From Microgenomates group bacterium GW2011_GWA2_44_7 (lineage in GTDB: Bacteria; Patescibacteriota; Microgenomatia; GWA2-44-7), in the NCBI GenBank assembly GCA_000999595.1, contig LCJH01000003.1:1-32890 (forward strand): DNA of 32,890 nucleotides, written 5' to 3'. The notes under the pieces are model-generated. The model ran no database searches. It worked only from the letters and a program-made list of their open reading frames with translations, and was not told the DNA's origin. How positions within the stretch are numbered: the first letter of the stretch is position 1; every line of letters begins with the position of its first letter. This document shows, piece after piece, positions 9,484-27,292 of the stretch. Made by a program: the position numbers and the translations under genes.

Positions 9484-10479
9484 ATGAAAGTACTAATCAC
9501 CCACGCCAACGGCTTCATGGGTAGCCACCTCATTGATCTTTTAATCACCAAAACAAATACAAAAATATATGGCTTGTTTTCCCCCAGAACTCCCACTCTC
9601 AAAAACTTTAAACATCTTAAGAACTTAAGTTCAAAAGTTACCCTGCGAGAGGCTTCTTGTCTGAACTCCCGCGCACTTCAGCAAGCGGTTAAAGAAATAA
9701 AACCGGACATCATCTACCATTTTGAGAGGTTTACCCGGCCGGGACATGCTTGGGACAAGCCAAAAGATGCCTACGATCTAAATGTTTCCGGAACCCAAAA
9801 CCTATTGGCCTCTCTGGGCGGAAATAATAAAATTCGCGTAATCATCGAGTCTTCTGCCTCAATATACGGAAATGTTTCCCAGGCAGACCTGCCGCTCAAA
9901 GAAACTTCTCCGTTTTATTTATCAGAAGTCTCAGGACCATATGAGTGGAGCGTCGCCGCTCAAGAAGCGGTTATTCGAAAATTTATCTTTGAACAAAAGT
10001 TAAATATTATAGTCGGTCGGTCCTTTAATATTGAGGGACCTCGTCGGCGGACAGGCTTTGCCACTTCGGATTTTGCTTATCAAATCGCCATGTTGGAATT
10101 CCTAAAAGATAAAAAATCAACCATTAAAGTCGGCAATTTGGCCGCCAGACGAGATTGGACCGACGTCCGAGATGCGGTCAAGGCTTATTATCTCCTTTCT
10201 CATAAGGGCAAGTCCGGTGAAGTATATAACGTCGGGTCCGGAGTCATTAAGTCAATCAATGATGTTCTAACCACACTACTCAGTTATTCAAACATCACCA
10301 ACTACCAGATTACCCAGGACCCAAAGCTTGGCCGCCCGGTAGATATCCCCATGCTCCAAGCAGACGATTCTAAACTAAAAAGTACCACCGGCTGGAAACC
10401 GACCATCGCTTTCGGTCAAATGATGGAAGATATTTTGGAGGATTGGCGAGAAAGGGTCAAAATAGCTGAATATGACTGA
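9484..10479 (+). CDS. Extended SDR, NDP-sugar epimerase/dehydratase/reductase-like (Gmd/Rmd-like), with atypical motifs
   Basis: [64 protein letters not shown]. Confidence 0.8.
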
Positions 10480-13025
10480 AGAAAATCCAGGCAATCCCAT
10501 CGGCAAAGTCAACCAGGTAGAGATAACGGCAGAAATTGAGAAGTCGTTTTTGGACTATGCGATGTCGGTAATTGTCCAACGAGCCCTCCCCGATGTTCGA
10601 GACGGATTAAAGCCTGTCCATCGGCGAATTTTGTATGCCATGGAGCAGATGTCACTCCATCACAGCGGCAAATATACAAAATCGGCCAAGGTGGTCGGAG
10701 AAGTTTTGGGAAAGTATCATCCACACGGAGACATCCCCGTCTATGATGCTCTCGTCCGACTGGCTCAGGACTTCTCGATGCGCTACATGCTGGTGGATGG
10801 TCAAGGAAACTTTGGCTCGGTTGATGGTGACAGTCCCGCCGCCATGAGGTACACGGAGGTCAGATTAGCCGCAATTTCCGAGGAAATATTGGCCGATATA
10901 AATAAAGAAACTGTTGATACGACCGCAAACTTTGACAACACCCTAAATGAACCTACCTATCTGCCTTCAAAACTGCCGAATCTCTTACTTATGGGCTCAG
11001 AGGGTATCGCCGTCGGCTTGGCCACCAAAATTCCACCGCACAATTTAACCGAGGTTATAGACGCGGTCTCATATGCCATTGGGCACGGTAAGGCCATAAT
11101 CAATAAACACCAAGAGGAATCAACATCAACCGAAACTGTCAAAGATGTCTTTGACATCCCGAAAATAAGCTTTGAAGGCAAAGACACAAAAAAGCTGGAT
11201 TTAGTCACTCCGACAGAAGTAAGTTTTGAATCCGAGGCAACCGTGGACGACCTCGTTCAATTTATTAAGGGACCCGATTTCCCAACCGGAGGAGCCATTT
11301 ATGACGCCAATCAAATAAAGGAAGTTTATGCGACCGGCCGGGGCAGAATTGTCATGAGAGGCAAAGCAGAAATTGAAGAGGGTAAAGGAGGAAAGTCACA
11401 AATAATTATCTCGGAAATTCCATATCAGGTAAATAAAGCGGAAATGGTAGCCAGAATCGCCCAGCTGGTCAAAGATAAAAAAGTCGAAGGGATATCAGAT
11501 CTAAGAGACGAATCAGACCGAGAAGGCATCAGAGTAGTGGTAGAGTTAAAACGCGACGCCAGACCCAAATCTGTTTTAAACAACCTTTACAAACATACCG
11601 CTCTTCAGACAACATTCCCGGCAAACTTTGTCGCTCTGGTTGACCAGACACCCCAAACATTGACCCTAAAACAGATGATTGTGGAGTTTGTCAAACACCG
11701 ACAACAAGTAGTTGTCCGCCGGTCAATTTATGACTTAAAGCAAAACCGAGCCAGGGCCCGAACTTCAATCAGTAGCCATCTTGGATATGCAGCTAAGGCG
11801 TTTGGCCGCACTGGAAAGACAAAAAATTGAAGACGAATATAAAGCGGTGATGAAGGTGATCGCCTTTTTAGAAGATCTACTTAAACATCCTGAAAAAATC
11901 TTGGTTGCAGTTGGCGACGAGCTCTCGGAACTGAAACAAAAATATGGCGATGAGCGCCGAACCAAAGTCTACAAATCTCCTATCGGCGAATTTTCCGAAG
12001 AAGATCTCGTCCCGCTTGAGGAAACAATCATCACCATCACCGGCACCGGTTATATCAAGCGGCAAAACCCTTCGGTTTTTAAGGCACAACATCGAGGGGG
12101 CAAGGGAGTGATGGGCATGGAAACCAAAGAAGAAGACGAAATTGCCCACCTGGTTGCGGGAACGACCCACGATGACCTTTTCTTTTTAACCTCCAAGGGT
12201 CGAATTTTTAAGGTAAAAACTTGGGAATTACCGGAAGGGAGCAGACAGTCAAAGGGTCAAGCCTTAGTAAATTTAATTAACACCGAGCAAGACGAAACGG
12301 TTCAATCGGTTTTGGCAATCAACCCTAAGCAACACGAAGGCCAGAAATATTTACTACTAGTAACCAGAAAAGGAACGGTTAAAAAGTCCGCTATTGCTGA
12401 TTATGAAAACATACGTACTTCGGGACTGATTGCGATTAAACTGGAAGCGGGTGACGAGCTGGTCTGGGCAAGGACAACTTCAGGCGAAGATGACATTCTC
12501 CTGGCAACCCATGAGGGCAAGTCAATCAAGTTTAAAGAAAAAGATGTCCGGCCAACCGGCAGAGATACGATGGGTGTAAGGGGAATCCTTTTGGGCAAAG
12601 AAGACTACGTTATCGGCATGGAGTCATTCCCACCAAAAATGACGGTGCCGGAGGATAAACGGAAGAAAGTTTTTAGAGACATTCTCGTGGTGATGGAGAA
12701 GGGAATCGGAAAAAGGACACCGATTGGCCAGTTCCCGGTTCAGAACCGAGGTGGCCAGGGGGTGAAAGTTGCTCAAGTAACGCCAAAGACAGGAAAGGTA
12801 GTTGCGCTGCAGATGGTCGATCAGACATATGATGAAGTCGTCTTAACAAGTAGAAACGCCCAAGTAATTAAGCTTCCTTTAAGGAATATTCCCGAGCTTT
12901 CGCGAGCCACCCAAGGGGTAATTTTAATGCGTTTCCAAAGTAAAGATGATAGCGTGGCGGCGGTAACCTGTCTTTTACGAGAAGGCGGGGAGGAAGAGAC
13001 AACGGAGACGGTGAAGAGTAAGTAG
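10472..13025 (+). pseudogene. gyrA: DNA gyrase subunit A, split in two frames by an apparent internal deletion near 11758 (possibly an assembly error)
   Basis: ORF 10472-11830 has [18 protein letters not shown], catalytic AAMRYTE; the frame ending at 13025 has [15 protein letters not shown], GyrA-box QHRGGKG and beta-pinwheel repeats. Confidence 0.9.
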
Positions 13026-13138: not shown

Positions 13139-14204
13139 TTAATTAGTATTTTGCGTTGGTAAAAGTGGACGATTATTCGGTAACAAAGACCTAACTTGGT
13201 ACGGGAGTTTTTTCCCATAAACTCCTGCAGTCTGGTAAAAGGTAGGGGTGGAGTGTAGAAGATGCAAATTAATTCGTTGGGGAAAGCACAGAAATGGTAC
13301 CCCAAGGTGGAAATGCTGTGTTTGTGGCAGAACCAGGTCCCGGGAGAAATCCAGATTGGCTTATGGTCTTATCAAAAAATACTTAATCGACGGTGACACC
13401 TGTCACCAGCTGGCCGGAACATATCGTGTCCACCCCGATACCGTAAGACGCAAAATATCCAGGGCGTTTAACCAGGCTCCGCCAATTCTGTCGCCTATTA
13501 TTCCTGAGCCATGCTGGCTAATTACTGACGCCACCCACTTTAAACACTGGGGCTGTTTATTTGTCACTAAGGCAACTGGAGTAAAGCACCCTCTGGCAGT
13601 TTCCTTCCACTACAAAGAGTGTTTTGAATCGGCAATTGAACACTTAAAACCACTGGGAAAGCTCGCCGTTACTGGATACACCACCGACGGCAAGAAGGGA
13701 TTGGTTTTAGCCCACAAAATGCTTTTTCCTGAAGCTCGCGGTCAACGGTGTTTAGTTCATATCCAAATGAGAGTGGGGACACTTCTGACTACCAGCCCCA
13801 AGCTCTTGGCCGGTCGGGAATTGGCGGAGTTAGTCAAACGGCTCCCAACGGTTAAAACTACCGTCGGAGCCCAACCTTTGGTGGGAAGCATTTAATATCT
13901 GGCAATACCGTCATCGGGAAACCCTAAATCAAAGAAGCCGATATGGCAAGCACTGGTGGTACACTCATCGGAATTTAAGATATGCCTGGAAACATGTAAT
14001 AAATGCCGCGGATCAACTCTTCGTTTTTATCTCCTATCCAAACTCCGTGTCCCACACTAATCATCTTGAGGGATTGTTTGGGCAACGAAAACCAGCACTT
14101 TACCGACATCGCGGTTTATCAAGAAGAAAGGTGGCCAATGCCCTTATGTGGACGTTTTATTTATTGTCTAAACGTTAAAATTACCAACGCATTTTACGTA
14201 TTAA
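13139..14204 (+). mobile_element. Insertion sequence (IS256/Mutator-like with N-terminal Zn ribbon), ~1.07 kb
   Basis: Imperfect inverted repeats ttaattagtattttgcgttggtaa (13139-13162) and ttaccaacgcattttacgtattaa (14181-14204), 19/24 matches, bracket the transposase. Confidence 0.75.
13248..14178 (+). pseudogene. Transposase with a +1 frameshift near 13870-13872
   Basis: CxxC...RWKCCVC ribbon, HTH, TDAT, TTDGKKGL, FP..QRCLVH; the shifted frame continues NLWWEAF..WWYTHRNLR..TNHLEGLF..HRGL to TAA 14176-14178. Confidence 0.8.
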
Positions 14205-15356: not shown

Positions 15357-18300
15357 TTAAAGATTATTTGGAACGATGGTAACGCTGCTGGCTAGATGGT
15401 TACCGATATACATGCGACCAAGACTGAAGTTCTCCGCCATTCCAAACGGACTGTTAACAAACTGTTGACCGACTACCGCGTAGGTACTTGGGTCGACAAT
15501 CAGTAGTTGATTGTCATGTTCGGCAGCAATATAGATCTTTCCCGTTTGTTGACTAACTCGTATTTCACCACCATCGCCGGTATCACCCAAAACCGTTGAG
15601 GTTTTAAAGGTTACTCCGCTAGGGTCGGCACTCAGTACATAAAGCGTGCTGGGGATATCAAAATCAGAATCAAAAGCAACCATTGTATAGACTTCGTTAG
15701 TGGTAGGGTTTGCCTGGATGTAAAACGGTACACCACCGGTTGAGAAAGTTTGGATCAGTTGTCCGGGATTTGAGCTGATATCGAATATTTTGATGTTTTT
15801 ACCATCCCTGTTAGAAACGTAAAGCTGGTTCAGGTTGGGGTTGACAGCGACACCGAATGAGCCGGAATCTGTACTGAGACAGCCGACCAGGGTGTTGCTA
15901 ACAGCATCGATAACGGCAACTCGGCCGGGACCATAAAGGGCCACATAGACTCTTTTTGTGGCGTTATTCGCAACCATATTAGTCGGAGAACCTGCACATT
16001 GTATCGGCGATAACGGATCATCTAGCTTAATATCTTTTACTTTTAGCATTAACCGTGCGTCGATTACGGAAACAGTAGTGCCGCCGCTATTACCGACAAA
16101 GACTCTGTCGTTAACATAAACCACACCCCACGGCCGTAAACCAACTTTTATTGTTCTTATCGTCAGTTTTTGAATCTCATCCCAGATATCGACTCGACCT
16201 AGGTCAGCCGAAGCCACATACAGTCGGTTACGAAGAGTGTCTACCGCCATACCCTTAGGACGTACAACAGTAAATGGGGTGGGAGTAGGGGTCACGGTTG
16301 GCGTTGGTGTCGGAGTTACAGTAGGAGTTACCGTCGGTGTTGGTGTGGGTGTCAAGGTCGGGGTAGGCGTCACCGTTGGAGTCGGCGTCGGGGTAATAGT
16401 AGGCGTGGGAGTTGGTGTAGAGGAAGAACAGATAGCTAAATCCCTCCAATTACCACCGGGGTAATAGCCTGAGGACATTCCTGCTTTAAAACCAACTGAA
16501 ACAGAGGTACTGCTTCCTGTATCGATGGTTCGACTATATGTCTGCCAGACACCGCCGTTACCATTAGGATAAGAGCCGAATCCGTCGAATTTATTTACAT
16601 ATACCCAATTGAAGGGGCTGCTATCAAAGTCGAAGGCAGAATACGCCCCGAGTCTATAGGCAACTTCAGTCCAGTAATTCAGCCCCGGATCGCCCTTCAT
16701 GGAAACGGTGATACTGTAGGTACTTCCGGGAGAAATGCTGTAAGTTTTAACTCTCGCCGAAGAACCGGAACTATTCAAGTAGGCGTATAAGAAGCTTGGT
16801 GTACTCCAACTTGCAGGTGAACCCCATGGAGCATCCCAGGCACTATTCCAACTTGGCATAGAGCTCAGTGAATCATAAACCACACAATTCGGAGGCGGTG
16901 TCGGGGTGGGAGTAACCGTCGGCGTAGGTGTAGGGGTCACAGTCGGAGTTGGAGTAGGCGTGGGAGTAACGGTTGGTGTAGGGGTTGGTGTCGGAGTAGG
17001 TGTTTCCGTTGGGGTAGGAGTTGGAGTCTCGGTCGGTGTTGGAGTAGGTGTTTCAGTTGGAGTCGGCGTAGGTGTAACCGTGGGTGTCGGAGTTGGCGTC
17101 TCAGTGGGTGTAGGCGTAGGAGTCACCGTAGGTGTAGGCGTAGGTGTTTCCGTTGGGGTAGGAGTTGGAGTCTCGGTCGGTGTTGGAGTAGGAGTCACCG
17201 TAGGCGTAGGTGTAGGAGTTTCAGTTGGAGTCGGTGTAGGAGTCGGTGTAGGAGTTTCTGTAGGTGTAGGTGTGGGGGTCGGAGTAGGTGTAGGTGTAAT
17301 TGTGGGTGTAGGCGTGGGGGTAACGGTAGGTGTGGGAGTAGGCGTAATTGTCGGTGTTGGCGTCGGAGTTGGAGTCTCAGTCGGAGTAGGTGTAGGGGTA
17401 ATTGTTGGCGTGGGAGTAGGTGTCACCGTGGGCGTAGGGGTCGGGGTCACAGTCGGCGTGGGCGTTGGAGTTTCCGTCGGTGTGGGCGTCGGTGTCACAG
17501 TGGGTGTTGGTGTCGGTGTTTCTGTTGGTGTAGGGGTAGGAGTAACCGTCGGTGTTGGGGTGGGGGTTGGCGTCGGAGTTGGAGTTGGAGTCTCAGTGGG
17601 AGTAGGCGTAGGAGTAATTGTTGGAGTCGGTGTAATAGTAGGTGTTGGTGTTGGGGTTACCGTGGGGGTAGGCGTCGGGGTCGGAGTAGGTGTAGGTGTA
17701 ATTGTGGGTGTAGGCGTGGGAGTAGGAGTCTCTGTGGGCGTAGGGGTTGGGGTAGGTGTCGGAGTTGGGGTGGGTGTTTCCGTAGGAGTTGGTGTAGGCG
17801 TAACAATTGGGGTAGGAGTTGGAGTAACCGTCGGGGTTGGAGTCTCTGTGGGCGTGGGCGTTGGTGTAGGGGTTTCTGTTGGTGTAGGTGTGGGAGTTTC
17901 CGTTGGTGTGGACGTAGGGGTCGGTGTAGGAGTAATTGTCGGCGTCGGCGTTGGTGTTTCCGTAGGTGCAGGAGTAGGTGTTACCGTCGGAGTCGGTGTC
18001 GGTATCTCTGTCGGAGTCGGTGTCGGGGTGGGATCTACATCGTAACAGAAAGAAGCATGGCTAAGACCGGCATTCCCCGGGGCTTGCAGATTGTTGTCCC
18101 CGAATGCCTCAGCGTACTGGTAGATATTAGCGCTTGGTCCACCCTTGACGATAACGGCATCAACCCCGAAAGTTGAGAGCCAATCAAAAGACTTGTCCCC
18201 TTCATCGGCCGAGACATCACTCAGAGTCAGGTATTGAGTTGAACCATCGGCTAATAAGACGTCGTAAGTGCCATTGGCGACAGGATCCACCCGATACGCT

Positions 18301-18575
18301 TCTAAAAGATCCGGTCGGATATCACTACAGGATGGGTTACCGGGAGTGGGAGACGGGGTGACGGTAGGGGTTGGAGTAGCAGTCACGGTCGGAGTGGGTG
18401 TCGGTGTTTCCGTAGGTGTTGGTTTACTTGCCAACGCAAGGGATAGCTCAGGCGCAGGAGCTGGGGAAGGAATCGGTTCCTCTGTCCACGCAAACCCAGA
18501 TGGGCTCAGGGAAGATAGGGCGAGGGAGATTGTAAGTACTAGCGAGCGCAAACCAACGACCGCTTTTTCAAGCAC
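15357..18575 (-). CDS. Large exported Pro-Thr stalk protein with two small globular domains and a C-terminal YVTN/YncE-like beta-propeller
   Basis: Signal-like N-terminus from GTG 18575 (ORF open to 18611); (PT)n linkers; propeller repeats [26 protein letters not shown]. Confidence 0.8.
16890..18032 (-). repeat. ~380-codon Pro-Thr low-complexity linker
   Basis: TPTPTP with interspersed E/V/I; exact 53-bp duplication at 16996-17048 and 17140-17192. Confidence 0.95.
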
Positions 18576-18752
18576 GTGAGTTATTCTACACCGAAGTACT
18601 GGGAAAAACAAAGAGTTTCATAAATAGAAACCTTAAGGGGCTAGTGGAGGATAAACCCTTAATCCCTTGATATGCTTCGATACACTATCGGAAAATTTAG
18701 GTCTTGCGGAAAAATGTAAGCTAAGCAATAGGGGAGTGGTTATGACTACTTG

Positions 18753-18782
18753 TTGACACAAAAGTTTAAAACGATTTATTAT
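18753..18782 (+). promoter_or_regulatory. Promoter for leaderless leader peptide 1
   Basis: TTGACA-18 nt-TATTAT, 7 nt before ATG 18790. Confidence 0.65.
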
Positions 18783-18789
18783 ACTTTTA

Positions 18790-18870
18790 ATGAATTCGGT
18801 GATTTTCCTTATTAGCCTTATTGCCCTCCTTGTCGGAGGCGAGGCTGATTTGGGAGAATCCTTTTTATAA
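18790..18870 (+). CDS. Putative attenuator leader peptide 1, MNSVIFLISLIALLVGGEADLGESFL (Ile/Leu/Val-rich)
   Basis: 26-codon ORF at the predicted transcription start; folds into a long hairpin; followed by a terminator. Confidence 0.6.
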   Translation: MNSVIFLISLIALLVGGEADLGESFL

Positions 18871-18891
18871 TATAAAAAAATAATAGCAGAG

Positions 18892-18917
18892 GACCTCCCA
18901 GAGATGGGAGGTTTTTT
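18892..18917 (+). terminator. Attenuator terminator 1
   Basis: gacctccca GAGA tgggaggtt followed by a T run. Confidence 0.75.
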
Positions 18918-18928
18918 AATGGATATAT

Positions 18929-19180
18929 ATGCAAGAAAACGGAAATCGTGAGGAAAAATATCCAACGACTCTTGATGGAGTCGAATTAAATTCTCTGTGG
19001 CAGGTAATTCAGTATCTACGTAGGCTGGAATATTTCAAGTTCCTTTCAACCGATGCCTTAGGAAAAATAGCGATCGGTTGGGTAGCAGACCCCGAACGAC
19101 GGCTTGACGGGGACGACGGAAGCGACCAAAGGAAAAAGGCGATGGCTTTACGAAGAGACAGTGGTGATGTATGCGGATAA
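18929..19180 (+). CDS. Hypothetical protein (83 aa)
   Basis: ORF directly after terminator 1; no motif recognised. Confidence 0.45.
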   Translation: MQENGNREEKYPTTLDGVELNSLWQVIQYLRRLEYFKFLSTDALGKIAIGWVADPERRLDGDDGSDQRKKAMALRRDSGDVCG

Positions 19181-19300
19181 TTTGTCCTAATTAAACAAAA
19201 TAATTGAACTAAGAAGGATGTGGAACAACGATCACAGTTACCAGACGAGGTGGCGGCGAGTGGGAATATTTTATCGTCCTTGGTAAGATAACAAAAGAAA

Positions 19301-20416
19301 ATGAAAACCCAACAATCTCAACCGAAAGAAAATGAAATGGACAGTAATATACTATCAGTCGCTAAAACACTTTTATGTTTTAGGACTGTAGCTGGGGCTA
19401 CAGATGAGTTTGAAGGGGCTTTTTCATATATAGAAAGGTGGGCTGCCACTCACGATTTCGACATCGAGCCGTTTACTTGCAATGGTATCCGATCTTGCCT
19501 TTTAAGCGGTTCCTCTAAAAAACTATTTGCTCCAGATATCATTCTGCATGGACATGTCGATGTTGTTCCGGCACATGATGAAATGTTTCAGCCAATGATT
19601 CTGGGAAATAAATTATATGGACGAGGAGCGGTCGACATGAAAGGAGCAATAGGAGCAATGATGGTTGCGCTTGAAAAGTTAAAACATACTAAACCTAAAA
19701 ATAAGATCGCACTATTAATAACAGGAGATGAAGAAACCGGAGGCCACAGTGGAACGGAATATATCTTAAAAACAATCAACCTGCGGCCAAAGTTGGTTAT
19801 AAGCGGAGAGCCGACAGAATTTAATATTTGCTATGCGACAAAAGGTATTATCGAAACAAAAGTTCACTTTTTAGGTAAATCCGCTCACGGAGCTCGTCCT
19901 TGGGAAGGGGTAAACGCCGTTGAGAAAGCCTCCGATTTTATTCAGAAACTTGTATCAAGATATCCTAATCCCATAGCGGCATCTTGGAAAACAACTATCA
20001 ATATCGGGATGATTTCCGGCGGTGATGCTTTTAATAAGGTACCCGGAGACTGTTATGTTGCACTAGATATAAGGTATGTGCCAGAAGAATCATCGGTCAA
20101 ACTTGTAAAAAACCTAAAAGCCCTCGGGGGAGATCGATGGGAGATGGTAAACAACGAAATTCCCCTAAATAGCGATCCGACCTCTAAGCCGATAAAATCC
20201 TTACAAGCCTTAGTCGGTAATCTGACAGGAAAGAAACCAATTCTTTATAAAGAACACTATGCTGCTGATTCCCGCTATTTTTCTAAAATTGGCATTCCGG
20301 CTGTTAACTTTGGGCCGAGCGGCGGCGGGATGCATACCGACGCGGAATGGGTTAGTTTAAAATCTCTTCAAGAATATTGCGATGTATTGGTTAAATTGGG
20401 CGACATTCATCTTTAA
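19301..20416 (+). CDS. M20 family metallo-amidohydrolase (ArgE/DapE-like)
   Basis: HGHVDVVP, GRGAVDMKG, GDEETGG, GEPT, GKSAHG, MHTDAE. Confidence 0.9.
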   Translation: MKTQQSQPKENEMDSNILSVAKTLLCFRTVAGATDEFEGAFSYIERWAATHDFDIEPFTCNGIRSCLLSGSSKKLFAPDIILHGHVDVVPAHDEMFQPMILGNKLYGRGAVDMKGAIGAMMVALEKLKHTKPKNKIALLITGDEETGGHSGTEYILKTINLRPKLVISGEPTEFNICYATKGIIETKVHFLGKSAHGARPWEGVNAVEKASDFIQKLVSRYPNPIAASWKTTINIGMISGGDAFNKVPGDCYVALDIRYVPEESSVKLVKNLKALGGDRWEMVNNEIPLNSDPTSKPIKSLQALVGNLTGKKPILYKEHYAADSRYFSKIGIPAVNFGPSGGGMHTDAEWVSLKSLQEYCDVLVKLGDIHL

Positions 20417-20424
20417 GCGGAGCC

Positions 20425-20454
20425 TTGACAAAGATCACCCGTGACCAATAGAAT
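20425..20454 (+). promoter_or_regulatory. Promoter for leaderless leader peptide 2
   Basis: TTGACA-18 nt-TAGAAT, 7 nt before ATG 20462. Confidence 0.7.
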
Positions 20455-20461
20455 AATCACA

Positions 20462-20542
20462 ATGAATTCCTGGTTCCTCTACATTACCCGCTTTATCCTC
20501 CCGATTATGGGTAGGAAAGCTGGTTTGGGAGGAGCGATATAA
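20462..20542 (+). CDS. Putative attenuator leader peptide 2, MNSWFLYITRFILPIMGRKAGLGGAI (aromatic-rich N-half)
   Basis: 26-codon ORF at the predicted transcription start; 20519-20530 pairs with 20565-20576 (antiterminator). Confidence 0.6.
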   Translation: MNSWFLYITRFILPIMGRKAGLGGAI

Positions 20543-20573
20543 AATAAACTAGAAAAAGAAAAAATCCTAAACC

Positions 20574-20604
20574 AGCCAACCCAAAAGGGTTGGTTTTTGT
20601 TTTT
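20574..20604 (+). terminator. Attenuator terminator 2
   Basis: agccaaccc AAAA gggttggtt followed by tttgtttt. Confidence 0.8.
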
Positions 20605-20617
20605 ATAAAGGATTTTT

Positions 20618-20710
20618 TCCGGATGGCTGGCGCTCAGTGATATCACCTAACAGCGTGTGGGAGCGGTGATATCAGCTGCCACAAAGCAGTATGGGCACCA
20701 GTCATCTGGA
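20618..20710 (+). ncRNA. Candidate structured RNA (three-way junction), family not recognised
   Basis: P1 20618-20636/20692-20710 (19 bp, three G-U, one mismatch), P2 20638-20647/20665-20674, P3 20675-20679/20686-20690. Confidence 0.5.
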
Positions 20711-20768
20711 CCTTCTCACCTCCCCCTCAACGGCGAGGGGGAAATTTACTAAGAAAGGAGGTGAGAAA

Positions 20769-20876
20769 ATGGCCAGAAAGCTTTGGGCCCTTCGGGGCCC
20801 AAACGACCCGGATGACACCGGGTCGGACAGCGACCCTGACGGGTCGGGTTCCCGCGACGGGAACCCACCCGATTAG
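20769..20876 (+). CDS. 35-aa Asp/Gly/Pro/Ser-rich peptide MARKLWALRGPNDPDDTGSDSDPDGSGSRDGNPPD
   Basis: Extended SD AAAGGAGGTGA just upstream of the ATG; followed by a 14-bp hairpin. Confidence 0.6.
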   Translation: MARKLWALRGPNDPDDTGSDSDPDGSGSRDGNPPD

Positions 20877-20882
20877 GGTTGC

Positions 20883-20915
20883 ACGCAAGGGTTGGCAACC
20901 CGTCGACCCTTGCGT
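20883..20915 (+). terminator. Strong hairpin after the peptide gene (partial terminator or 3' stabiliser)
   Basis: acgcaagggttggc aaccc gtcgacccttgcgt, 14 bp with two G-U pairs, weak T tail. Confidence 0.55.
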
Positions 20916-20930
20916 AAATTTTAAAAAAGT

Positions 20931-21908
20931 ATGTCTCATCAACTCGTTAAATCACTTATCCAACCAAGGGGGATAGAGACAACCCCAAAGTTAAGGCGGC
21001 TACATCCAGTTGAAGCTTCTTTAAGGCTGCTTCTCCGTTCAAATAACCTGCTTTGCTGTGTCAGCCAAGAAACAAAAGATCAAATCAGAAAAACGATCAG
21101 AAATTGCTTTGTCTTTCAACAACCATTGACCGTAAATATTACGTTCGGGAGTTACAAAGGGAAAAATGTGCCTTCAAGAATCTACGCCAATTGGGCTGAG
21201 ATTCTAAATGTTAAATTCATGCTTGATACATTAATCAAGATTGCGGAAATATATCCCTTCGGTGTCGTTTTAGAATATGTCCTCCAAGATATTCTTTTAA
21301 CAGAACTTAACGATATAAGCTCCGACGACGTCAGTCGGTATATTGAATCATTCCAAGAAATTGTTAGTCTTTTTCAGCCGTCTTTAAGCAACATCGTTAC
21401 AATTAAAACAATTCGGTATGGAGATATCGTTGATCATCACGAATTTAAAAATAATATAAGCAAAGAAATTGAAAAGATAAAAACCGAATGGAAACTCTCC
21501 GAAAATCAAGAACTAGCCAAGGCCGCCATTGAGAGGGCGAAACGAAACCTGCAAAAAGTAAACCCTTCTGACGGTGAGATTATCGAATCAGCCATGTTCC
21601 ACACAGCATATGTCCGGACCTGCTTCACATTGGATTATTTCGAAACTAAAGAGAGAATTTTTTTGGTTCACCGAAAAACAATTTCTGGAAACAAACCGTT
21701 TATTCCTTATCGAAGTTTTCATTCGTCAGCGGTGCAATTCTGGGTAGGCGAAGGCGCCCTGGTCAAAAACGGTGTTCTCAAGCCAACAATTCTCAGTGGA
21801 AAACAACTTGGGGAGCATAACCCTTTATATTCGATAGAAAATGACGCCTTTGAAACAAGAAACCCCAACCTAAAATCTATCGCCGTCTATGAAAAAACTT
21901 CGAGTTGA
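20931..21908 (+). CDS. Uncharacterised enzyme with remote resemblance to PvcA/DIT1 isonitrile synthases
   Basis: QPLTVNITFGSYK...NWAE...IAEIYPFGVVLEYVLQD...DDVSRY parallels the PvcA pattern P....PAFP.K...PD..E...I...Y.PG....i.SD...V..Y; by eye only. Confidence 0.4.
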   Translation: MSHQLVKSLIQPRGIETTPKLRRLHPVEASLRLLLRSNNLLCCVSQETKDQIRKTIRNCFVFQQPLTVNITFGSYKGKNVPSRIYANWAEILNVKFMLDTLIKIAEIYPFGVVLEYVLQDILLTELNDISSDDVSRYIESFQEIVSLFQPSLSNIVTIKTIRYGDIVDHHEFKNNISKEIEKIKTEWKLSENQELAKAAIERAKRNLQKVNPSDGEIIESAMFHTAYVRTCFTLDYFETKERIFLVHRKTISGNKPFIPYRSFHSSAVQFWVGEGALVKNGVLKPTILSGKQLGEHNPLYSIENDAFETRNPNLKSIAVYEKTSS

Positions 21909-26257: not shown

Positions 26258-27292
26258 TTATTTATTACCGGAATGATATTGTTTATGGACCTCTTTAAGC
26301 TGTCGGTTGGTGACGTGGGTATATATTTGGGTAGTCGCTACGTTTTTGTGGCCAAGCATTTCTTGGACGCTTCGAAGATCAGCCCCTGCCTGTAATAGGT
26401 CCGTTGCAAACGAATGCCTTAAGCCATGGGGAGTAATTTTGATAGGAAGTTTGGCCTTTTTAACGTATTTTTCAACCAGCCGTTGAATACTTCGCGAAGT
26501 TAAGCGATGTTTCTCGCTTTCATTTACATCAAACGTCTTGATCACCTTCTCTATGTCTCCCTTTAGACCACGAAAATTAATAAAGAGTGGTGTCCATTGA
26601 TCTTTTCGCATCGCCAGATACCCCTCAAGCGACTGCGCCGCCCGGTCAGAAATAAAAACCACCCTAACTTTTCGTCCCTTCCCGATAATTCCAAACTCCC
26701 TCCGCTCGATATTAACCGTGTCTCTATTTAAAGAAACCAATTCACTCACCCGTAAGCCCGTGGAGAATAATAATTCAAGAATTGCCTTGTCCCTGGCGCC
26801 ATCAAGCGTCGAGGGTAGTGGTTGACTTAAGAGATGCTCCACTTGATCGCGATCTAAAAACTTTAGACTATGAGACTCCCCCCTGGGCAATTCTATTTTT
26901 TCGGGCGAAAGAACATTGTAATCATTTTTCGTTAACCATTTGAGAAACGCCCGGATGGCAATAACATAATAAGACTGAGTCACCCGAGACAAAGACCTAT
27001 TCTTAGAGTCCGTGTACTGAGCAAGATAGAGCCGATATTTTCTAATTGTCGGTAAGTTTATATCCTGAACCTTACAGCTCTCACCCTCGGACTTTATCAA
27101 CCAGTCCAAGAAGCGTCTCAGGTAATGGCGATAGTCCCGAATCGTTAAAGGTGACGCATTCTTCTCGACCAGAAGATAACCTAAAAAATCTTCAATTAAC
27201 ACGCCAATCGGACCGCCAAGCCGACCACCGGGTAGGGGAGTGGAACCCTGGTTTGACGGCTCATCGTGTTTGTCTGACGGATTAACTGACAT
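26258..27292 (-). CDS. XerC/XerD-type tyrosine recombinase
   Basis: N-terminal SAM-like FL.YL..EK..S..T...Y; RDKAILELLFSTGLRVSEL, GKGRKVR, TPHGLRHSFAT, LGH....TTQIYTHV (R-K-H-R-H-Y intact). Confidence 0.92.
   Translation of the reverse strand: MSVNPSDKHDEPSNQGSTPLPGGRLGGPIGVLIEDFLGYLLVEKNASPLTIRDYRHYLRRFLDWLIKSEGESCKVQDINLPTIRKYRLYLAQYTDSKNRSLSRVTQSYYVIAIRAFLKWLTKNDYNVLSPEKIELPRGESHSLKFLDRDQVEHLLSQPLPSTLDGARDKAILELLFSTGLRVSELVSLNRDTVNIERREFGIIGKGRKVRVVFISDRAAQSLEGYLAMRKDQWTPLFINFRGLKGDIEKVIKTFDVNESEKHRLTSRSIQRLVEKYVKKAKLPIKITPHGLRHSFATDLLQAGADLRSVQEMLGHKNVATTQIYTHVTNRQLKEVHKQYHSGNK

Follow-up and report, generated by a model that had tools for sequence, protein, structure and literature searches.

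Introduction

Attenuators of enterobacterial amino acid operons (ilvGMEDA with ilvL, leuL, pheL, trpL, hisL and thrL) combine a short open reading frame (ORF) with alternative hairpins between four consecutive RNA regions (1:2, 2:3 and 3:4) and an intrinsic terminator, the regulatory codons being situated in region 1 and the position of the stop codon such that region 2 is covered when the ribosome terminates. Two units of this layout, designated here L1 and L2, lie in a stretch of 32,890 nucleotides (nt) of DNA (contig LCJH01000003.1, positions 1 to 32,890, forward strand; hereafter the window) from Microgenomates group bacterium GW2011_GWA2_44_7, an ultra-small inhabitant of groundwater. Sequence comparisons lead us to regard them as probable ribosome-read (leader-peptide) attenuators, paralogous to each other and belonging to a new family that is restricted to one class.

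The peptide of L1, rich in Ile, Leu and Val, appears to resemble the ilv and leu leaders. Unlike the enterobacterial attenuators, L1 and L2 are predicted to be leaderless and possess neither a Shine-Dalgarno (SD) sequence for the leader ORF nor a tandem run of a single codon; their putative targets, in what appears to be an auxotroph, are not biosynthetic operons but genes for peptidases/deacylases, a PvcA/IsnA-fold gene and others that are uncharacterised, and in their family the 3' arm of the terminator doubles as the SD sequence of the next gene. No sequence or covariance-model similarity to the enterobacterial leaders was found: Rfam gave no gathering-level match in the window, the best being Phe_leader (RF01859) on L1 with 25 bits against a gathering threshold of 55 (E 0.29), and by these thresholds L1 and L2 appear to belong to no described family.

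Translational attenuators of the ermC/cat type also have a short leader ORF, four-segment alternative pairing and an SD sequence within the 3:4 hairpin; L1 and L2 differ from them in having no downstream resistance gene and in a hairpin that carries a terminator-type U-run. Attenuators of aminoacyl-tRNA synthetase (aaRS) operons are represented by the E. coli pheM-pheST type. The likeness here is that the same genome has leaderless units before leuS and metG, and that L2 precedes a gene for a fold related to TyrRS and CDPS, whereas neither L1 nor L2 stands before a canonical aaRS gene and the leuS and metG units represent a different sequence family. Leaderless polycysteine short ORFs form the mycobacterial "Cys ribulon", whose attenuators sense cysteine via poly-Cys tracts and act on translation, a stalled ribosome opening the structure that sequesters the RBS (Canestrari et al., bioRxiv 10.1101/834739). 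The likeness lies in a leaderless sensory short ORF as the first cistron, in one design repeated at several loci and in a buried GGGAGG; in contrast, the L1/L2 family is Leu/Ile-rich, has at most one Cys per leader and no Cys tract, belongs to another phylum and has a sequestering hairpin that is a canonical intrinsic terminator too. L1 and L2 would work like the mycobacterial Cys attenuators but are not members of that group.

Patescibacteria (the candidate phyla radiation, CPR) have tiny genomes with few recognisable regulators and obtain amino acids from other cells. The literature searched yielded no report of leader-peptide attenuation in Patescibacteria/CPR. A conserved switch requiring only the ribosome, and no regulator protein, would be a cheap nutrient sensor for such organisms.

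Anatomy of the two units

Both units (L1, 18753-18917; L2, 20425-20605) are collinear and begin with a near-consensus promoter, 7 nt, ATGAATTC and a 26-codon ORF situated in a long hairpin; an A-rich linker and then an intrinsic terminator follow. Their parts are as follows.

18753..18782, plus strand: L1 promoter, -35 box TTGACA (18753-58), 18-nt spacer, -10 box TATTAT (18777-82); 11/12 consensus positions
18790..18870, plus strand: L1 leader ORF, 26 codons and TAA (18868-70); ATG at the predicted +1, leaderless; frame kept in the family
18798..18819, plus strand: L1 region 1, codons 3-10 (S V I F L I S L), which make up the 5' side of the ORF hairpin; placed by the minimum free energy (MFE) fold, covariation and the cognate/non-cognate comparison
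18841..18862, plus strand: L1 region 2, 3' arm of the ORF hairpin with the conserved GCTGATTTGGGAG box (18844-56); native versus synonymous recodings, z -4.66
18871..18887, plus strand: L1 linker, A-rich, unpaired
18888..18917, plus strand: L1 regions 3 and 4, intrinsic terminator with core ACCUCCCA-GAGA-UGGGAGGU and U6; RNAfold P >= 0.91
20425..20454, plus strand: L2 promoter, TTGACA, 18-nt spacer, TAGAAT; 11/12 consensus positions; starts 9 nt past the stop codon of the M20 gene
20462..20542, plus strand: L2 leader ORF, 26 codons and TAA (20540-42), leaderless geometry
20471..20494, plus strand: L2 region 1, codons 4-11 (W F L Y I T R F), which make up the 5' side of the ORF hairpin
20516..20537, plus strand: L2 region 2, 3' arm with GCTGGTTTGGGAG (20519-31); recoding z -3.06
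20565..20576, plus strand: L2 region 3, UCCUAAACCAGC, complementary to region 2 over 12 bp; its last 3 nt are also the first 3 of the terminator stem
20574..20605, plus strand: L2 intrinsic terminator, AGCCAACCC-AAAA-GGGUUGGUU and a U-rich tail

The encoded leader peptides are MNSVIFLISLIALLVGGEADLGESFL (L1) and MNSWFLYITRFILPIMGRKAGLGGAI (L2). Common to both units is the 13-mer GCTGRTTTGGGAG, of which the 1.2-Mb genome has no exact copies other than those at 18844 and 20519; when one mismatch was allowed there were five copies, not above the reversed-pattern control (5). The transcripts fold into the long ORF hairpin followed by the terminator at -50.7 kcal/mol (z -5.7) for L1 and -45.7 kcal/mol (z -4.2) for L2, with 0/200 shuffles as good. 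A simple scan for terminators picked up the hairpin of L2 (20574-20595) alone, and the L1 terminator comes from RNAfold. The 5' arm of the latter, CUCCCA (18895-900), is complementary to region 2, and its 3' arm, GGGAGG, is Shine-Dalgarno-like. The preliminary description of this DNA had listed promoters, 26-codon ORFs, a shared block, an A-rich linker and terminators, all of which are present at the coordinates it gave; the alternative pairings that it quoted are likewise real and comprise 6 bp in L1 (UGGGAG 18851-56 with CUCCCA 18895-900) and 12 bp with one G-U pair in L2 (20519-30 with 20565-76).

Paralogy and a class-restricted family

Strict local alignment of L1 with L2 recovered GCTGRTTTGGGAG only and was not significant (296/2000 shuffles reached its score). 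Collinear global alignment was significant, the z values being 5.6 (ORF), 4.7 (when ATGAATTC is left out) and 6.7 (transcript) and none of 3000 shuffles scoring as high, and both units scored 74-106 bits against the family models described below; the proposed paralogy of the two units is thereby sustained. Neither blastn nor a covariance model revealed further copies in the 1.2-Mb genome, L1 and L2 being the sole matches.

The genome (G000 in our numbering, where L numbers other than L1 and L2 denote loci in relatives or elsewhere in G000) comprises 100 contigs at 43.5% GC, is 87.6% complete and has a CPR-like gene content (type IV pilus ATPases, H+-pyrophosphatase, DUF5656). The nearest genomes available for comparison belong to the same class only. 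DNA searches of 60 relatives for close counterparts of the locus gave chance or terminator matches only, and a metagenome scan with the M20 protein encoded between L1 and L2 found relatives at 26-51% identity only. Contigs from four sequencing runs showed zero differences over 18600-21000, so no microdiversity was usable.

A covariance model (R1) was built only from the hairpin regions of L1 and L2, as had been proposed at the outset, and searched against 150 other genomes of the class. It matched G111:C2 at 44 bits (E 2e-5), plus weaker matches that shared the whole architecture. With the rebuilt models R2 and R3 the matches rose to 47-78 bits and G048, G155 and, weakly, G078 were added, L077 staying at 27 bits. 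The accepted family has ten members in nine genomes, namely L1 and L2 in G000 and one member in each of eight further genomes of its class; L066, a contig-end duplicate of L074, was counted once. Five candidates were dropped as lacking the ORF and terminator layout: L068, L071 and L072, which were coding-like sequence, L076, with a 4-codon ORF, and L078. Across the family the units measure 125-138 nt from ATG to U-run.

A phylum-wide covariance-model sample gave no match in 150 other genomes, a weak negative, as 28 candidates were scored per genome. The GTDB-wide pattern ATGAATTC-N40-56-GCTGRTTTGGGAG matched ten times in unrelated phyla, where about nine are expected by chance (our own estimate).

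Reading frame and leader peptides

Stop codons in the ten leaders number 1 in frame 0 and 16 and 17 in the other two frames, and the sole frame-0 stop falls in the weakest member, L077 (TGA at codon 19), in which the GGGAG box and a 2:3 helix of 10 bp are nevertheless retained. The nine full-length members have no stop in frame 0 against 15 in each other frame, are 25-27 codons long and all end in TAA. This open frame in 9/10 members speaks, at the level of sequence, for the leader being translated, as previously suggested. The leader ATG is invariant in the family and stands either at the leaderless position or 1-2 nt past an upstream stop codon.

The peptides follow the pattern M-N/S-x and a hydrophobic stretch with Ile8, Leu10/13, Gly16-17 and Gly22-23, and are otherwise fast-diverging. 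Codons 3-15 (130 residues in all) specify 44 Leu (34%), 25 Ile (19%), 11 Phe, 9 Val and 1 Cys, and L2, with W, Y and 2 F, is the aromatic outlier. Of the contrast initially drawn between an Ile/Leu/Val-rich leader 1 and a Trp/Phe/Tyr-rich leader 2, the compositions stand (L1 is Leu/Ile-rich and L2 aromatic), and the division of sensing between them is not established, Leu/Ile richness being family-wide and partly forced by pairing.

Four members (L069, L075, L079 and L077, with the element at about 1501 in each), of which three come from one taxonomic family and the fourth from a second, have their leader ATG 1-2 nt past the stop codon of a DUF5660 gene, a geometry of translational coupling. 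No leader follows the DUF5660 gene of G000 itself (G000:C32:7839-8171), and no mention of DUF5660 was found in the literature searched. It should be noted that the 3' end of the DUF5660 gene holds a promoter-like site, TTGTCA-16-TAACAT, in L069 and L075.

Alternative RNA structures

In each of the nine full-length members the native ORF hairpin surpassed synonymous recodings in stability (z -3.1 to -5.6; at most 3/400 recodings as stable). Duplexes of region 1 with region 2 averaged -20.9 kcal/mol for cognate and -13.9 kcal/mol for non-cognate partners (0/50,000 permutations). In the alignment, which was fitted to the covariance model, 82.8% of cells pair, against 71.7% when shuffled and 51-65% with slid partners, and 11/19 pairs change on both sides. 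Judged by these comparisons, the peptide sequence does not by itself account for the 1:2 hairpin.

The conserved GGGAG box of region 2 mimics the 3' arm of the terminator (GGGAGG or AGGAGG) and is therefore complementary to its 5' arm. The box alone proves little, because CCUCC-type terminators are common in these genomes. The 2:3 complementarity extends, however, member-specifically into the terminator loop or the linker, with 12 bp in L2, 10 bp in L077, an 8-bp helix in L065 and, in L075, an 8-bp perfect stretch (read by eye) inside a longer helix. Region 2 paired with linker and terminator 5' arm at an average of -19.45 kcal/mol for cognate against -14.17 kcal/mol for non-cognate combinations (0/50,000 permutations), and the cognate partner ranked first in its own row for 5/10 members.

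When nt 1-45 were masked, to imitate a ribosome on region 1, and the transcript was cut at the terminator loop, the 2:3 helix formed in 10/10 members at -12.7 to -28.4 kcal/mol (L1, -16.9 kcal/mol). At equilibrium, with the same mask on the whole transcript, terminator probability dropped in L070, L074, L075, L077 and partly in L2; the L067 terminator is near zero (0.06) even unmasked. With codons 1-15 of L2 masked, the 2:3 helix formed and the terminator stem shrank from 9 to 6 bp. A GC-rich stem with a U-run is present in 10/10 members. The 1:2, 2:3, 3:4 layout claimed for the two units thus extends to the family, in which all three helices are conserved and 1:2 and 2:3 co-vary; in L1 itself the 2:3 helix is weak.

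Promoters and leaderless starts

The promoters of L1 and L2 are the only 11/12 sites in 18000-21500, where promoter-like sites as such (five) are not above shuffles (7.0 +/- 3.1). Five family members have promoters matching 11-12/12 consensus positions, and the spacer between -10 box and ATG, read by eye, is 7 nt in L1, L2, L065 and L074. Genome-wide, the pattern TTGACA-N16-19-TANNNT-N5-9-ATG has 28 sites, 24/28 of which open an ORF of at least 80 codons. A relaxed search for the same geometry was less specific, and since its control spacers of 1-3 nt and 12-14 nt also reached many long ORFs (11/43 and 22/54, respectively), a positional profile was preferred to this count. In 707 long ORFs the TANNNT box is most frequent 6-7 nt ahead of the first ATG (55 and 44 cases at these two spacers, where background is about 18), the commonest arrangement in the genome, as would suit the leaderless start attributed earlier to the two units, and SD four-mers are rare (peak 19/707). 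Leaderless initiation is, on the basis of the -10-box profile, common in GW2011_GWA2_44_7, and the start geometry of L1 and L2 is normal for its genes.

Genes behind the terminators

In 7/10 members an ORF of at least 60 codons starts 0, 0, 3, 7, 10, 11 or 14-23 nt past the U-run, and the 3' arm of the terminator (GGGAGG) stands at SD distance from this start. Such genes are predicted to be transcribed only by read-through, because the gap of 0-23 nt leaves no room for a promoter, their SD sequence being buried in the terminator. The genes of relatives comprise a 470-aa family with at least 314 relatives (for which the label "ATP-grasp" derives from one UniRef name only), unrelated proteins of 441 aa and 332 aa, small ORFs followed by a PALP enzyme and small ORFs followed by rpoB. 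Most of these proteins have no Pfam or NCBIfam family, the 470-aa family has no sequence match in the PDB, and profiles of three abutting genes showed no similarity to one another. Behind L1 and L2 the following features were found.

18929..19180, plus strand: orphan ORF of 83 codons, 11 nt past the L1 U-run; possible first regulated gene
19301..20416, plus strand: ArgE/DapE-family M20 deacylase/peptidase gene; Pfam Peptidase_M20 and M20_dimer; TIGR01910 at 199.6 bits, below the cut-off of 217.6
20620..20915, plus strand: GC-rich, highly structured stretch separating the L2 terminator from the gene that follows
20931..21908, plus strand: PvcA/IsnA-fold gene (isonitrile-synthase-like, TyrRS/CDPS-related fold), 325 aa; first long gene after L2
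21889-22860, plus strand: Ldh_2-family dehydrogenase gene, downstream of L2
22931-24256, plus strand: M20 dipeptidase-like gene, downstream of L2

The earlier suggestion of hydrolase or tailoring genes, not biosynthetic ones, as targets agrees with the M20 deacylase, PvcA/IsnA-fold protein, Ldh_2 enzyme and M20 dipeptidase encoded here. The host was also supposed to be a probable auxotroph, and chorismate synthase, KARI and isopropylmalate dehydrogenase (Iso_dh) indeed had no match in the 87.6%-complete genome. Each control search matched 14/14 well-known genomes, and GW2011_GWA2_44_7 is therefore likely to be auxotrophic for aromatic and branched-chain amino acids, within the limits of an incomplete genome.

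The 83-codon ORF has no Pfam or NCBIfam family and matched only itself among 5.8e9 proteins. Since L2 starts 9 nt past the stop codon of the M20 deacylase gene, the L2 terminator is the only predicted terminator for that gene too. The next long gene after L2 is 325 nt away, behind the structured stretch, which over 20600-20935 (336 nt) has an MFE of -183 kcal/mol (z -11.8) with near-perfect hairpins and 56-66% GC against 43% in the genome. It contains a strong SD sequence (AAGGAGGTGA) and a 35-codon ORF at 20770, is present in a single copy in the genome, has no Rfam family and had no match in 400 genomes of the class beyond the 29-nt SD region. A relaxed ARAGORN run made a low-confidence tRNA-like call at about 20839-20913.

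The AlphaFold model of the PvcA/IsnA-fold protein (pLDDT, the predicted local distance difference test, 74.5) had as its best Foldseek match 9dh4 (PIsnA with L-Tyr, E 3.4e-7), then 3e59 (PvcA), and after these TyrRS and CDPS; Atlas look-alikes agreed, and Pfam PF05141 (E 0.023) was below cut-off.

Homologues of this gene occur in 12/400 genomes of the class, with two paralogues in G000; the loci considered were 20931-21908 of the window, L082, L084, L088, L090, G000:C25:25212-26277 and G000:C27 (minus strand, match 2031-2456). In many of the homologues, the two G000 paralogues included, a same-strand gene for a tRNA or tRNA-like RNA ends 0-8 nt ahead of the ATG, and the GC-rich stretch after L2 occupies the corresponding place. 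ARAGORN called tRNA-Cys(gca) twice, tRNA-Met(cat) and one tRNA with an odd anticodon loop, and at G000:C25:25285 a tRNA-Val(tac) ends on the A of the ATG. Such an arrangement could mean that the enzyme depends on a tRNA reserved for it, or that tRNA processing generates the 5' end of a leaderless mRNA.

Other mini-ORF units in the genome and the signal sensed

G000 has further leaderless mini-ORF and terminator units that are unrelated to L1 and L2, to which alone R3 matches (C35:101-300, L096; C9 from about 7265 downward, minus strand, L097; C83:8944-9110, L095; C6:403-580, L098). A Leu-rich MQNLLKLLDPLRLALS unit is situated upstream of DUF2000 and leuS, a Met-Met MTLKISSMMAITAV unit upstream of an MTS methyltransferase gene and metG, and a Phe/Tyr-rich MSTQGKKFFYFFAYLA unit upstream of a PEP_mutase-family gene and a class IV aminotransferase gene; masking of region 1 lowers the terminator probability of this last unit from 0.93 to 0.05. 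A 29-codon leaderless ORF was also observed upstream of genes for a methyltransferase and a YbaK-like editing protein.

By analogy, these unrelated units before leuS, metG and the aminotransferase gene provide the strongest indirect support for amino acid sensing by L1 and L2. As read from the leader sequences, the signal is most likely the supply of charged tRNA for hydrophobic amino acids, with Leu/Ile fitting the family, and L2 may be shifted towards aromatic amino acids. This aromatic outlier precedes a gene whose modelled fold has L-Tyr-binding proteins as its closest solved relatives, a link to sensing that is no more than suggestive.

Proposed mechanism and alternative explanations

If L1 and L2 are ribosome-read attenuators, transcription would start at or next to the ATG, so that a 70S ribosome could load on the 5' end of the 26-codon ORF. 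With the leader untranslated, pyrimidine-rich region 1 (codons about 3-10) would pair with purine-rich region 2 (GGGAG box, codons about 18-24), and a ribosome reaching the TAA would cover region 2; in both cases region 3 (CCUCCC-type) would pair with region 4 (GGGAGG and U-run) into the terminator, burying the SD-like sequence and leaving the unit off. A ribosome lingering on the Leu/Ile/Phe/Val-rich codons of region 1 would leave region 2 free when region 3 emerges, and the 2:3 helix would pre-empt the terminator, giving read-through and an exposed SD sequence, with the unit on. L1 would in this manner gate the orphan 83-codon ORF and the M20 deacylase gene, and L2 the structured RNA and the genes for the PvcA/IsnA-fold enzyme, the Ldh_2 enzyme and the M20 dipeptidase. 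The mechanism itself is textbook; new would be the leaderless start, the terminator as SD trap and the non-biosynthetic targets in an auxotroph, together with the lineage and the absence of any Rfam model.

A number of observations weigh against this interpretation. The 2:3 helix of L2 takes away only 3/9 terminator pairs, no placement of a 30-nt footprint brings the L1 terminator below P 0.91 at equilibrium, and those of L065, L069 and L079 persist with nt 1-45 masked; a switch in these four would rely on kinetic pre-emption by a helix of 6-8 bp. The weak 2:3 helix of L1 (6-7 bp) is the weakest point, and appears credible only via the family and co-transcriptional folding. The alignment behind the pair counts was, as said, fitted to the model. 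The family is small (ten members) and patchy, being found in about 7/150 other genomes of the class, with 4/28 in one order and 1/7 in another. The leaders lack a tandem single-codon run such as those of trp, his and leu leaders, Leu and Ile together making up 69/130 residues of codons 3-15, and this richness may be a by-product of RNA pairing; it is not independent evidence for sensing, because a pyrimidine-rich arm complementary to GGGAG encodes the same composition. Three of ten members (L2, L067 and L079) have no long ORF abutting the terminator, and downstream genes vary by member, are mostly uncharacterised and share no homology. The M20 gene behind L1 may have an extended -10 of its own (TGgTAAGAT, 19281-89, read by eye). 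Finally, none of the 20 sequencing runs listed with the locus was recorded as RNA.

Conservation of frame, length and certain positions (Ile8, Leu10, Leu13, the Gly pair 16-17 and Gly 22-23) would equally be expected if the units were independent genes for a hydrophobic protein of 25-27 residues, with their own promoter and terminator and in some genomes a DUF5660 partner, in which the hairpin tuned mRNA stability or translation and the downstream genes were mere neighbours. The tight coupling of leader start to DUF5660 stop in four genomes of two taxonomic families, the terminators of L1, L065, L069 and L079 that persist at equilibrium and the mutually unrelated downstream genes are also in keeping with such a mini-protein. 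We nevertheless consider it unlikely, given that the peptide evolves fast even within one family while the flanking DUF5660 3' end is nearly identical, that synonymous sites are constrained for pairing and that region 2 and the 5' arm and loop of the terminator co-vary, something for which a plain terminator would have no need. Moreover, the gene 0-23 nt past the U-run in 7/10 members, with the terminator arm as its SD sequence, would depend on read-through, and the DUF5660 gene of G000 has no leader ORF behind it. A hydrophobic stretch of 12-13 residues is too short to span a membrane. Quite improbable, in our judgement, is a nascent-peptide sensor of the ermC/tnaC type, in which a small molecule (antibiotic or metabolite) together with the nascent chain would stall the ribosome and free region 2. 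The ORF length of 25-27 codons, the conserved spacing from residues to stop, the TAA of all nine full-length members and the diverse targets, which would suit a general stress or drug signal, are consistent with it, as is the four-segment layout with the downstream SD sequence in segment 4, shared with ermC. Residues outside the hydrophobic/Gly pattern, however, vary freely, neither unit has a resistance-type gene behind it in the window, and we recognised no known arrest motif in the peptides, although no motif search was made. Sensing of tRNA supply instead appears to be a local habit, because other leaders of the genome match the downstream aaRS (Leu with leuS, Met-Met with metG).

A promoter and terminator of their own, a size of 125-138 nt and strong folding would befit translation-independent small RNAs or protein-binding RNA elements with an incidentally open frame, as would L077, in which the GGGAG box and the 10-bp 2:3 helix outlast a TGA at codon 19. 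This we hold to be very improbable in view of the stop-free frame 0 in nine members against 15 stops per other frame, the invariant ATG at the leaderless position or 1-2 nt past a stop codon and the lack of any Rfam family at threshold (Phe_leader, 25 bits against 55). It is hardly credible at all that the units are type I toxins, i.e. small hydrophobic peptides held in check by mRNA structure and antisense RNA: the small peptide, its hydrophobic N-terminus and the strongly folded mRNA would be in line with this, but 8/10 members have no antisense promoter-like site and none is conserved, only two copies without a surrounding repeat family occur in the genome, and genes abutting the terminator point to a leader role.

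Should the units be leader-peptide attenuators, the family would flag mostly uncharacterised genes that answer amino acid shortage, namely those for M20 peptidases, the tyrosine-binding-fold enzyme and, in relatives, the ATP-grasp-named family. A broader and distinctly tentative idea, to which we attach low confidence, is that the family forms an arm of a "ribulon", by which auxotrophic Patescibacteria would sense the supply of hydrophobic amino acids via leaderless mini-ORFs and switch on an undescribed salvage or peptide-modifying response (M20 deacylases/dipeptidases, the ATP-grasp-named ligase family and PvcA/IsnA-fold enzymes), L2 gating a tRNA-linked tyrosine-binding-fold enzyme.

Other features of the window

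Elsewhere in the window, gyrA is represented by two ORFs that overlap, the first (10472-11830) encoding the DNA_topoisoIV domain and the second (11781-13025) the C-terminal beta-propeller repeats; a frameshift, a sequencing error or a genuine split could account for this. A short ORF at 13248-13895 has a weak match to a Mutator-family transposase (E 2.4e-4, below cut-off), and a gene for a phage-integrase-family recombinase is located on the minus strand at 26258-27292.

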